Below, piece by piece: positions 18,493-19,102 of a stretch of DNA of 39,615 bases (position 1 is the first letter of the stretch; each line of letters opens with the position of its first letter). This stretch comes from Escherichia phage PSK1: the sequence record PP541512.1; one strand, given 5' to 3'. A program made the position numbers and the translations under genes. The notes beneath the pieces are model-generated. The model was given only the letters and a program-made list of their open reading frames with translations. It was not told the DNA's origin and ran no database searches.

Positions 18493-18582
18493 ATGAATAT
18501 CGGTTACTTGGTGTGCTTATCTCCGGTCATCTTTCTGATAGGGTATGGGATATACGACTGTATTAAACGGAAATCACTATGA
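18493..18582 (+). CDS. Early micro-protein, 29 aa, hydrophobic (MNIGYLVCLSPVIFLIGYGIYDCIKRKSL)
   Basis: AGGAG RBS 6 nt upstream; stop overlaps the next start (ATGA); predicted single transmembrane segment. Confidence 0.45.
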   Translation: MNIGYLVCLSPVIFLIGYGIYDCIKRKSL

Positions 18583-18776
18583 GTCTTGCACTATTGATAG
18601 CCATAGGCTATGGACTTATCGCATACGTGCTGGTGAGAGACATCAACAAGGCACGTAAAGTCTACAGATTCAACTATGTACGCATGGTCCGCTGGACTGT
18701 ACGTCAACCTAACGGACGATTCATGCGCAATTTAGCGAACGTCTGGGATATAGCAACTCTTGGGAGCAAACTGTAA
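18579..18776 (+). CDS. Early small membrane-anchored protein (65 aa)
   Basis: N-terminal hydrophobic helix (LALLIAIGYGLIAYVLV) then a basic tail; coupled to both neighbours (ATGA / TAATG). Confidence 0.55.
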   Translation: MSLALLIAIGYGLIAYVLVRDINKARKVYRFNYVRMVRWTVRQPNGRFMRNLANVWDIATLGSKL

Positions 18777-19102
18777 TGAACAAGTCATACGGGATTAATC
18801 TGGTACACTCTATGGACGCAGAAATGAACATGTTAAGCCTACTGGCTACCGGGTATCGTCACGGAACGTCAAGTCACACCGCACGTCAACAGCAGGAGCG
18901 GGACCGTGTACTACAGGCGCGACTCCGGGCAGAGGGCCATAAGTCCGAACTGATGTGTCTGGCGTATGGTGGACGACCAATCACCGACGATGGTAAACTT
19001 CTGGTATCAGGCTGGACGGCGATAGACCAACGGTCAACCATCAAGCACACGACCAAAGGTGACTTCAGTCATCTTCACGCTAACCCACTGATATGCAAGT
19101 AA
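18776..19102 (+). CDS. Early hypothetical protein (108 aa)
   Basis: TAATG overlap with the upstream gene; sits where T7 has the 0.7 kinase, but no kinase motif is visible. Confidence 0.55.
   Translation: MNKSYGINLVHSMDAEMNMLSLLATGYRHGTSSHTARQQQERDRVLQARLRAEGHKSELMCLAYGGRPITDDGKLLVSGWTAIDQRSTIKHTTKGDFSHLHANPLICK

Follow-up and report, generated by a model that had tools for sequence, protein, structure and literature searches.

In phages T7 and T3, the gene for gp0.7, which in T7 is a kinase with a role in host shutoff, lies immediately upstream of gene 1, the phage RNA polymerase (RNAP) gene. T7 gp0.5, a class I product of 47 amino acids, is encoded by the first gene past an R0.5-type RNase III site, and its gene is joined to 0.6A by an ATGA junction. 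In the annotation of T3, the B promoter is placed just ahead of R0.5 and gene 0.6 after it; T3 gp0.6 is in turn followed by gp0.65 and the gp0.7 kinase. T7 genes 0.3–0.7 are highly dispensable on 11 hosts (PMC11482910), and T7 gp0.5 itself is uncharacterized (PMC12798971).

We examined the equivalent region of Escherichia phage PSK1 (PP541512.1), using as the window the whole 39,615-nucleotide stretch, a Kayfunavirus (K1F-like) sequence with 98.7% identity to LI10P1. Three small open reading frames, ORF1, ORF2, and ORF3, are arranged here in series (Table 1), and a phage promoter and gene 1 (start at 19200) directly follow ORF3, which thus stands in the place that 0.7 has in T7 and T3. An earlier note on this DNA had described three overlapping early ORFs of 29, 65, and 108 amino acids just upstream of the RNAP gene, and we found the ORFs, their ATGA and TAATG overlaps, and their position exactly as it had given them. 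The same note had regarded them as an undescribed module, which does not hold: the genes have been annotated since K1F (the gp0.36–0.38 slot) and EcoDS1 (gp0.6 and gp0.38), belong to PHROGs 2385 and 7066, and are found in over 200 phage genomes on deposit. The trio therefore consists of catalogued early genes of K1F-like phages, two of them for tiny membrane proteins and the third for a soluble protein. In the same neighborhood, a 49-amino acid gene is a relative of T7 gp0.4, and the ocr gene adjoins the trio region.

Table 1 Features of the trio region of phage PSK1 (positions in the window)
Feature	Position	Strand	Description
Candidate sigma-70 promoter, TTGACC-16-GATACT	18393..18420	+	Position of the T3/T7 minor 'B' promoter
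RNase III-type processing hairpin (R0.5-like), predicted	18420..18474	+	9-bp upper stem, internal loops, lower stem
Shine-Dalgarno AGGAG for ORF1	18482..18486	+	Only strong Shine-Dalgarno (SD) in the cassette
ORF1	18493-18582	+	29 aa; single-pass membrane peptide, positional counterpart of T7 gp0.5
ORF2	18579-18776	+	65 aa; T3 gp0.6 family, N-terminal membrane anchor
ORF3	18776-19102	+	108 aa; K1F/EcoDS1 gp0.38 family (phrog_7066), soluble, basic
Phage RNAP promoter TAACTATCACTATAGGA	19111..19127	+	Between ORF3 stop and gene 1
Hairpin with internal loops, R1-like RNase III site candidate	19117..19176 (boundaries approximate)	+	Predicted fold

All three frames behave as protein-coding genes. 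The ratio of nonsynonymous to synonymous polymorphism (pN/pS) was 0.26 for ORF1 (16 distinct homologs), 0.30 for ORF2, and 0.28 for the ORF3 core, as against 1.28 and 1.43, 0.88 and 1.44, and 1.52 and 1.85, respectively, in the other two frames. In-frame values of 0.26–0.30 indicate purifying selection, and this sequence analysis confirms that all three small genes are real and conserved. The first two products had been proposed to be single-pass membrane proteins, and each indeed has one N-terminal transmembrane helix by Kyte-Doolittle hydropathy and, for ORF2, in the AlphaFold2 (AF2) model as well.

We then considered the relation of the trio to the gp0.7 kinase. The earlier note had seen no kinase motif in the three products, and this was borne out: tblastn with T7 and T3 gp0.7 matched nothing anywhere in the window, Pfam gave no match, and gp0.7 resembles none of the three ORFs. 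It had also placed the trio in the slot where T7 has the kinase, which can be read as a replacement. In that reading, an undescribed module in place of gp0.7 would achieve an equivalent host shutoff by a different mechanism, as could be argued from the lack of a gp0.7 homolog in the window, from the location of ORF3 directly upstream of gene 1, and from an arginine-rich helix in ORF3 that superficially resembles the basic C-terminal region of gp0.7. However, six relatives encode a gp0.7-type kinase of 244–255 amino acids directly upstream of the same ORF1-ORF2-ORF3 trio, and every one of the 21 T3-type loci examined has gp0.7 alongside a homolog of ORF2. A relationship of gp0.38, the family of ORF3, to the gp0.7 C-terminal region could also be dismissed, as the hhalign probability of the gp0.38 profile against the gp0.7 family was 0.2%, and the genes already bear names in K1F and EcoDS1. 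Thus, the co-occurrence largely refutes the replacement of the kinase, which we regard as extremely improbable, and by these comparisons the trio is no substitute for gp0.7.

ORF2 is the member of the trio with the widest kinship. It matched phrog_2385 with an E-value of 9.3e-32 over residues 1–64 and is 92–94% identical to K1F gp0.37 and EcoDS1 gp0.6. When its family was aligned with that of T3 gp0.6 by hhalign, the probability was 97.7% (E-value 1.5e-12, 57 columns), and 13 columns were invariant in both branches (Y11, D21, R38, T40, V41, R42, N45, G46, R47, F48, N51, A59, and T60). With the T3 gp0.6 family (NP_523298), ORF2 has in common its 65 residues, an N-terminal transmembrane helix with [RK]D after it, the invariant motifs R-[WF]-T-V-R-x-x-N-G-R-F-x-x-N and A-T, a class I location past an R0.5-type hairpin, and a gene that overlaps the next one. 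They differ in that ORF2 is only about 38–40% identical to T3 gp0.6 proper, that the Kayfunavirus branch has a 5-residue deletion past the anchor and a C-terminus 4 residues longer, and that ORF2 is followed by gp0.38 rather than by gp0.65 and the kinase. On this evidence, we assign ORF2 as K1F gp0.37/EcoDS1 "gp0.6", within the widespread T3 gp0.6 family, which comprises at least 317 clusters at 90% identity with members of 64–67 amino acids. By blastp and tblastn, neither ORF2 nor ORF3 matched T7 gp0.6A or the 0.6B region in any of its frames.

The hydropathy of ORF2 peaks at residues 1–19 (19-residue maximum 2.32), five K/R residues occur within the 15 residues past this hydrophobic stretch, and the isoelectric point is 11.3. 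The AF2 model has a helix at residues 2–29 with a pLDDT of about 93 and a C-terminal half of low confidence. ORF2 is accordingly predicted to be anchored in the membrane by its N-terminus, with a very basic tail of 45 residues that the positive-inside rule would place in the cytoplasm.

ORF3 matched phrog_7066 (E-value 3.7e-45) and is 73% identical to K1F gp0.38 and 90% identical to EcoDS1 gp0.38 over 84–86 residues. The three proteins have in common a core of about 80 residues with the motifs YGGRPxTDDGKLL and HTTxGDFSHLHANPLICK, and their genes begin on the stop codon of a gp0.6-type gene, just before a phage promoter and gene 1. Their lengths differ, with 108 amino acids in ORF3, 86 in K1F, and 132 in EcoDS1, in which a DKNGVEWKYVGTDSRGRNYWEK segment is inserted. 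An alignment of 31 gp0.38 sequences has 17 invariant columns, with a hypervariable N-terminus and a conserved core. In ORF3, a helical core and a conserved GDFSHLHANPLICK tail go together with a variable N-terminus; the structural model is of low confidence at both termini, and the hydropathy maximum over 19 residues is 0.74. An exhaustive profile search with gp0.38 returned 14 representatives, all of them small phage proteins; a match to a 1594-amino acid protein was judged spurious. On these comparisons, ORF3 is K1F/EcoDS1 gp0.38, a member of a very narrow family. A zinc site, which the 7 His and 2 Cys residues might have formed, was rejected, as distant members lack most of these residues, and a relationship to T7 gp0.6A was rejected at an hhalign probability of 0.6%.

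A possible distant counterpart is T3 gp0.65 (55 amino acids), whose gene, as ORF3 does, overlaps a T3-type gp0.6 gene at its 3′ end. The two families share a local motif, K-x-x-L-[MY]-x-[ML]-[AP]-Y-G-[GA], and their profile–profile score of 21.4 exceeds those of all 200 column shuffles (mean 9.1, sd 1.7, maximum 14.8). The hhalign probability was, however, 17% with just 11 columns aligned (Viterbi, no realignment), and T3 gp0.65 lacks the GDFSHL tail of gp0.38.

ORF1 was found in 94 phage records, frequently without annotation. Its variable sites are distributed over the three codon positions as 12/8/28 (16 distinct homologs), its replacements are conservative, and its length is fixed at 29 amino acids. 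The EcoDS1 annotation instead has a 47-amino acid GTG frame that spans the hairpin and ORF1; we rejected this frame, as the substitutions fit the ORF1 frame only. Thus, the 29-amino acid ORF1 is a real gene that has been missed or mis-framed in many deposited annotations, that of EcoDS1 included. With a hydropathy maximum of 1.91 at residues 6–24 and a C-terminal KRK, the peptide is predicted by the positive-inside rule to adopt an N-out/C-in topology.

T7 gp0.5 resembles ORF1 in being the product of the first gene past the R0.5-type site and in being tiny, hydrophobic, and ATGA-coupled to the following gene, but this is a positional and architectural analogy only. ORF1 has one hydrophobic helix, compared with roughly two in T7 gp0.5, and no similarity between them was detected (a Smith-Waterman score of 19, where shuffles averaged 20.2, z = −0.3; an hhalign probability of 0.3%). 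Sequence comparison ruled out ORF1 as a relative of either T7 gp0.5 or K1F gp0.36. True gp0.5 homologs fill the ORF1 slot in three relatives (L008, L030, and L050), with z-scores of ~9 against T7 gp0.5 for the peptides of L008 and L030. This slot, which we call slot 1, may hold a 29-amino acid peptide, a 45-amino acid gp0.5-like peptide, a 53–55-amino acid gp0.36-like peptide, two in tandem, or none. The T7 gp0.5 slot is therefore occupied alternately by three tiny hydrophobic peptides with no relation to one another, of which ORF1 is one.

The arrangement itself is shared more broadly than its occupants. ORF1 and ORF2 repeat the gp0.5/gp0.6 architecture of T7; the divergent phage L008 has a trio of 45, 65, and 98 amino acids with overlaps identical to those of PSK1; the gp0.5-like gene of L050 overlaps a T3-type gp0.6; and the T3-like phage SH2 has a 52-amino acid ORF and a 65-amino acid ORF that overlap by 4 nt (PMC4925675). 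The coupling of a tiny hydrophobic peptide to the small gene after it is thus a layout common to T7 and T3-type phages, and only the occupants differ. Losses occur as well: phage ZG49 has a natural ORF1-ORF2 fusion deletion that keeps the ORF1 helix and removes most of ORF2, another relative (L022) is without ORF2, and two (L002 and L003) keep ORF2 and have no slot-1 ORF.

At the junctions in PSK1, the TGA stop of ORF1 shares bases with the start of ORF2 in ATGA (18579-18582), and the TAA stop of ORF2 shares bases with the ATG of ORF3 in TAATG (18774-18778). ORF1 and ORF2 overlap by 4 nt in 11 loci and by 1 nt in another 5. The stop codon of ORF2 directly overlaps the ATG that follows it in 22–24 of 28 loci; in the remaining four, an inserted homing-endonuclease gene uses the ATG at the ORF2 stop. 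Since the endonuclease splits ORF2 from ORF3 in these four loci, their coupling is not obligatory. Overlapping junctions are ordinary for such genomes: in the close relative MZ234023, 20 of the 59 junctions between adjacent CDSs overlap, and in 13 of these the overlap is 1 or 4 nt. The genes are, in short, catalogued hypothetical genes of a well-sampled phage genus with nothing exceptional in their coupling.

The translation starts are unequal. ORF2 has only GGA upstream and is essentially devoid of a Shine-Dalgarno sequence, and ORF3 is preceded by GGGAG at 18762-18766, 9 nt upstream of its ATG. The strong SD at ORF1 and its lack at ORF2 would suit a role of ORF1 chiefly as a translated leader, in which the SD loads ribosomes, the nascent chain perhaps targets the mRNA to the membrane, and ORF2 is translated by reinitiation; it would also suit such a role that the non-homologous slot-1 peptides are all short and hydrophobic and end a few nucleotides from the ORF2 start. 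We nevertheless consider this role very unlikely, given that ORF1 is under purifying selection at the amino acid level (pN/pS 0.26), with an invariant length and conservative replacements, that L002 and L003 maintain ORF2 with no ORF in slot 1, and that ZG49 retains the ORF1 helix despite the deletion of most of ORF2.

The flanks of the trio matched no Rfam family, and we compared their signals with those of T3. The sigma-70 promoter is a weak candidate: it has 9 of 12 consensus matches, no better than shuffled sequences, and is kept in a subset of relatives only. The predicted hairpin that follows is similar in sequence to the annotated R0.5 site of T3, is kept in 14 of 16 loci whichever gene lies upstream, and has compensatory changes in its upper stem (GAGGTCATC/GGTGGCCTC versus GAGGCCACT/AGTGGTCTC). 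Past ORF3, the phage RNAP promoter is one of 10 copies of TAACTATCACTATAGGA in the window, all on the + strand, where 0.05 would be expected by chance, and a 'phi' promoter is annotated at the equivalent place in EcoDS1 (2244-2266). This promoter is the 3′ boundary of the unit transcribed by host RNAP only. The second predicted hairpin opens with CTCAAGGTC, which resembles the T3 R0.5 sequence, and lies at a place equivalent to that of T3 R1. Neither hairpin folds better than its shuffled counterparts (z about −0.9), so that both are supported by conservation only.

Taking these observations together, we think it probable that this is the last of the early (class I) translational units of a K1F-like phage, with dispensable accessory products. 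Host RNAP would transcribe the trio within the early polycistron, and RNase III would cut out a separate tricistronic mRNA. Ribosomes would load at ORF1 and then reinitiate at ORF2 and ORF3, and reinitiation would yield two inner-membrane proteins and a single cytoplasmic partner in roughly matching quantities during the first minutes of infection. The membrane proteins would have their C-termini in the cytoplasm, as expected from the positive-inside rule, and the products would serve as dispensable accessory host-takeover factors at the cytoplasmic face of the inner membrane. That the trio encodes dispensable early accessory proteins acting at the inner membrane is, to us, the most likely statement of its role. 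Their accessory nature is suggested by the variable content of slot 1, the deletions in ZG49 and L022, the homing-endonuclease insertions between ORF2 and ORF3, and the dispensability of T7 genes 0.3–0.7. Since ORF2 keeps its length and motifs unchanged over many T7-group genera, the target of these proteins is probably conserved throughout the Enterobacterales.

This functional statement is generic because all homology and fold searches led to uncharacterized relatives only. Scans of the three ORFs against Pfam, NCBIfam, and PADLOC gave no informative match; searches of PDB sequence profiles with the ORF2 and ORF3 families gave nothing informative (best E-value 0.45); word-indexed searches returned only unnamed proteins of phage contigs of ~40 kb; and our homology and fold searches revealed no homolog of the trio with a tested function. 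Of what the earlier note had named as refuting it, clear homology to characterized T7-group early proteins, only one half holds: the homology is clear, but the homologs, T3 gp0.6 and K1F gp0.38, are themselves uncharacterized. A literature search found no paper on gp0.37, gp0.38, T3 gp0.6, or T3 gp0.65, and the trio proteins are absent from the supplements of the accessory-gene screens of Silas et al.

Two more specific roles can be weighed. In T7, gp0.4 inhibits FtsZ, and gp0.6 is reported to target MreB (Molshanski-Mor et al. 2014). By analogy, ORF2, possibly together with ORF1 and gp0.38, might inhibit a membrane-associated growth or division machine, such as MreB/RodZ or the FtsZ anchors. 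ORF2 takes the position of T7 gp0.6A and is likewise coupled to a tiny hydrophobic peptide, T7-type gp0.6A and T3-type gp0.6 were found together in none of the 52 loci examined, the 49-amino acid neighbor is related to gp0.4, and ORF2 is so strictly conserved across genera as to suggest that its host target is conserved too. However, the mutual absence of gp0.6A and gp0.6 could simply reflect lineage, equivalence of position says little about function where early regions are mosaic, and neither sequence similarity to gp0.6A nor a fold or motif ties ORF2 to cytoskeletal binders. We consider such a target decidedly unlikely.

Alternatively, the membrane proteins might exclude superinfecting phages, by blocking the channel through which a second T7-like particle ejects its DNA, or might inhibit abortive-infection or defense systems embedded in the membrane. 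The turnover of slot 1, with three unrelated hydrophobic peptides and presence or absence among relatives, is typical of arms-race accessory genes, and the hypervariable N-terminus of gp0.38 on a conserved core, the location of these early genes next to ocr, and a gp0.5 substitution that swept in experimental evolution of T7, a hint of a fitness role at the membrane (PMC12798971), point in the same direction. The strong conservation of ORF2, on the other hand, is unlike that of most anti-defense genes, no PADLOC-related or anti-defense family was matched, and the trio proteins lie outside the accessory-gene set screened by Silas et al. This role, too, seems unlikely to us.

Returning to accessory proteins that act at the inner membrane, we suggest, with more doubt than confidence, that the gp0.6 anchor, its coupled peptide, and gp0.38 might form an early membrane-tethered complex that neutralizes a conserved target in the inner membrane. 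This target could be a machine of the host envelope or of host division, or else the channel through which a superinfecting phage ejects its DNA. The slot-1 peptides and the variable N-terminus of gp0.38 would then be specificity modules. That the three products associate physically is purely our inference.

As a discovery the trio carries little weight, and the useful outcome is a clearer map. The ORF2 family is among the most widely conserved uncharacterized early proteins of T3- and K1F-type phages, and phages with this type of trio are used in therapy against K1 E. coli, Salmonella, and Citrobacter. Because the products are small, probably dispensable, and present in therapy phages, the gp0.6-type anchor and its partners are a reasonable and cheap target for work on early host takeover. 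If a membrane-tethered complex does form, it would represent a mechanism of host takeover or exclusion that has yet to be described in the T7 group.

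The three ORFs lie where the earlier note had placed them, and they are joined as it had read them: ORF1 to ORF2 by ATGA (18579-18582) and ORF2 to ORF3 by TAATG (18774-18778). Across related loci, in-frame pN/pS was 0.26 for ORF1, 0.30 for ORF2 and 0.28 for the core of ORF3, as opposed to 0.9-1.8 in the other frames. The 29 codons of ORF1 were kept in 16 of 16 distinct homologs, with 12, 8 and 28 variable sites at codon positions 1, 2 and 3, respectively. All three ORFs are thus coding. Their coupling is conserved yet ordinary for such genomes, since 20 of the 59 adjacent CDS junctions in the close relative MZ234023 overlap, 13 of them by 1 or 4 nt. 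In four loci, a 140-aa HNH homing endonuclease gene sits exactly at the ORF2/ORF3 junction and captures the TAATG start, its ATG overlapping the ORF2 stop. The Shine-Dalgarno sequence is strong only for ORF1 (AGGAG), with GGGAG for ORF3; as ORF2 has essentially none, its translation probably relies on reinitiation at the ATGA.

Features of the trio, its surroundings and compared relative loci (L numbers)
Feature	Position	Strand	Remark
ocr	17417-17923		Pfam ocr, 5.7e-29
49-aa gene (K1F/EcoDS1 gp0.35)	17920-18069		start overlaps ocr stop (ATGA)
75-aa acidic protein, phrog_32657	18133-18360		fills kinase slot
Predicted hairpin with internal loops	18420-18474		5' of ORF1
ORF1	18493-18582	+	29 aa
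ORF2	18579-18776	+	65 aa
ORF3	18776-19102	+	108 aa
Phage promoter	19111-19127	+	3' of ORF3; "phi" in EcoDS1 annotation
Second predicted hairpin			3' of ORF3, 5' of gene 1
RNAP gene 1	19200-21881		several small genes between ocr and gene 1
Ten promoter copies, [TA]AACTATCACTATAGG[AG]	starts 2283, 9952, 15705, 19111, 22432, 24164, 25131, 33180, 36001, 36989	+	
HNH/endonuclease VII-type inserts, 140-144 aa	L013 2077-2500; L019 2118-2552; L021 and L024 2077-2497		
Short gp0.7-type kinase genes	L015 1383-2150; L019 1033-1767		also in L016, L020, L021, L024

The hairpin upstream of ORF1, similar in sequence to T3 R0.5, was kept in 14 of 16 loci independently of the upstream gene, with compensatory changes in its upper stem. 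T3 is ordered B promoter, RNase III site R0.5, overlapping 0.6 and 0.65, 0.7 kinase, C promoter, R1 and gene 1; in T7, gene 0.5 (47 aa, hydrophobic) is linked to 0.6A via ATGA and followed by 0.7. L008, a divergent phage that encodes a T3-type SAM lyase, has a trio of 45, 65 and 98 aa with overlaps identical to those here. The window thus has this architecture in common with T7 and T3. The promoter at 19111 lies immediately 5' of the RNAP gene, suggesting that gene 1 autoregulates its transcription; no phage promoter stands at this place in T7.

ORF2 belongs to the T3 gp0.6 family. It matched phrog_2385 (9e-32) and shows 92% identity with K1F gp0.37 and 94% with EcoDS1 "gp0.6", and its family aligned with 20 T3-type gp0.6 sequences in a profile-profile comparison (probability 97.7%, E 1.5e-12). 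Thirteen residues are invariant in the joint alignment: Y11, D21, R38, T40, V41, R42, N45, G46, R47, F48, N51, A59 and T60. A search with this alignment yielded 317 or more clusters (90% identity), every one about 65 aa long and unnamed, all from T7-group contigs of about 40 kb (Escherichia, Klebsiella, Yersinia, Erwinia, Pectobacterium and Salmonella phages). An ORF2 so constant from one genus to the next suggests that its target is conserved as well.

Single hydrophobic helices, as the earlier note had predicted, are present in ORF1 and ORF2 (Kyte-Doolittle 19-residue maxima 1.91 and 2.32), AF2 giving a confident helix at residues 2-29 of ORF2; the positive charges on the C-terminal side of both predict an N-out/C-in topology. 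An I-G-Y-G motif occurs within both helices (LIGYGIYD in ORF1, AIGYGLIAY in the ORF2 anchor; 18493-18640); this very short match may stem from packing between helices or from an ancient duplication. ORF1 had no family in the libraries searched and was found in 94 deposited phage genomes, unannotated in many. RefSeq gives EcoDS1 (L005) an 'unknown product', a 47-aa GTG ORF (1493-1636) whose frame crosses the RNase III-type hairpin, and leaves the conserved 29-aa homolog in another frame (1563-1652) unannotated; the substitution pattern speaks against the 47-aa frame as the gene.

The position of ORF1 (slot 1) corresponds to that of T7 gp0.5, an uncharacterised class I gene product that is putatively membrane-associated (PMC12798971). 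Most loci have the 29-aa peptide there, L008 and L030 a 45-aa true gp0.5 homolog (z ~9 vs shuffles), and five a 53-55-aa K1F gp0.36-type peptide; two types stand in tandem in L018 and L026, and L002 and L003 have none. The three types showed no mutual relationship when compared.

ORF3 matched phrog_7066 (4e-45) and K1F/EcoDS1 gp0.38 and has no hydrophobic helix (Kyte-Doolittle 19-residue maximum 0.74). AF2 gave a helical core of moderate confidence (helices 36-88, pLDDT ~87; overall 68.5). Among 1.84 billion proteins, the family has 14 representatives at 50% identity and is therefore very narrow; a core of about 80 residues is conserved, the N-terminus comes in several classes of length, from about 83 to about 139 aa, and distant members retain R[ED]xVLxxRMxAEG, YGGxPxxxDGKLL and HTTxGDFSHL. 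Turnover at slot 1 and at this N-terminus points to arms-race pressure on both. Like gp0.38, T3 gp0.65 overlaps the 3' end of a gp0.6-type gene, and the two share K-x-x-L-M-x-[LM]-[AP]-Y-G-G. Their profile score (21.4) exceeded all 200 column shuffles (9.1 ± 1.7) with an hhalign probability of only 17%, making a relationship a lead, not a result.

The earlier note had set the trio at the T7 0.7 kinase position. The position is right for ORF3, and no gp0.7 homolog was found in the window; as a kinase replacement, however, the trio is all but excluded. Six gp0.38-bearing relatives carry a gp0.7-type kinase of 244-255 aa (GLGHFAAAFEH...IKVGFKKDDSGAAYAAFCR) directly 5' of the hairpin and trio. Compared with T7 gp0.7, it lacks the C-terminal extension of ~110 residues; it lies upstream of the gp0.6-type gene, whereas T3 gp0.7 lies downstream, and its K1F-like carriers have a T3-type SAM lyase. 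ORF2 homologs also accompany gp0.7 in 21 of 21 T3-type loci, and gp0.38 showed no similarity to gp0.7 (probability 0.2%). These comparisons indicate that trio and kinase are independent modules.

The genome is permuted, its early region starting at ~16500, and over the 2.8 kb around the trio, identity is 98.7% with Kayfunavirus LI10P1 and 94-97% with dozens of K1F-like phages. Where the window has the 75-aa phrog_32657 protein, SFPH2-like relatives have a short gp0.7-type kinase; the four Cys of the 75-aa protein (23, 32, 47 and 50, including CDHC) suggest a small zinc-binding domain. The ocr homolog has 168 aa, with the Pfam domain spanning residues 8-94 only; its acidic C-terminal ~70 residues have no counterpart in T7 Ocr (117 aa). 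The 49-aa gp0.35 had no match in our Pfam scan. It is an apparent relative of the FtsZ inhibitor T7 gp0.4, with 37% identity over 41 aa, and is 50% identical to an L008 protein with a precomputed PF26807 (Phage_T7_GP04) match.

Phage ZG49 (L009, 2358-2501) carries a natural in-frame fusion in which ORF1 (residues 1-28) continues into the 19 C-terminal residues of ORF2, so that the ORF2 anchor and the TVRQPNGRF motif are deleted; a K1F gp0.36-type peptide lies 5' and an intact gp0.38 3'. L022 lacks ORF2. Together with the endonuclease inserts, these cases suggest that the genes are dispensable. T7 genes 0.3-0.7 are highly dispensable across 11 hosts (PMC11482910).

Host RNAP would transcribe the trio and RNase III processing would yield a tricistronic mRNA, translated with coupling through reinitiation; the basic tail of ORF2 would face the cytoplasm, and the trio may serve host takeover in an accessory capacity at the inner membrane. 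Among candidate functions, inhibiting the cytoskeleton or divisome, as the analogy to T7 gp0.4 and gp0.6 would have it, seems rather unlikely, and putative superinfection exclusion and putative counteraction of membrane-associated defence are doubtful to the same degree. The earlier observation is confirmed and its interpretation supported in part: the module is not undescribed, as its early genes are already catalogued (K1F/EcoDS1 gp0.37/gp0.6 and gp0.38) and uncharacterised. What makes the trio worth attention is chiefly how broad the uncharacterised T3 gp0.6 family is.
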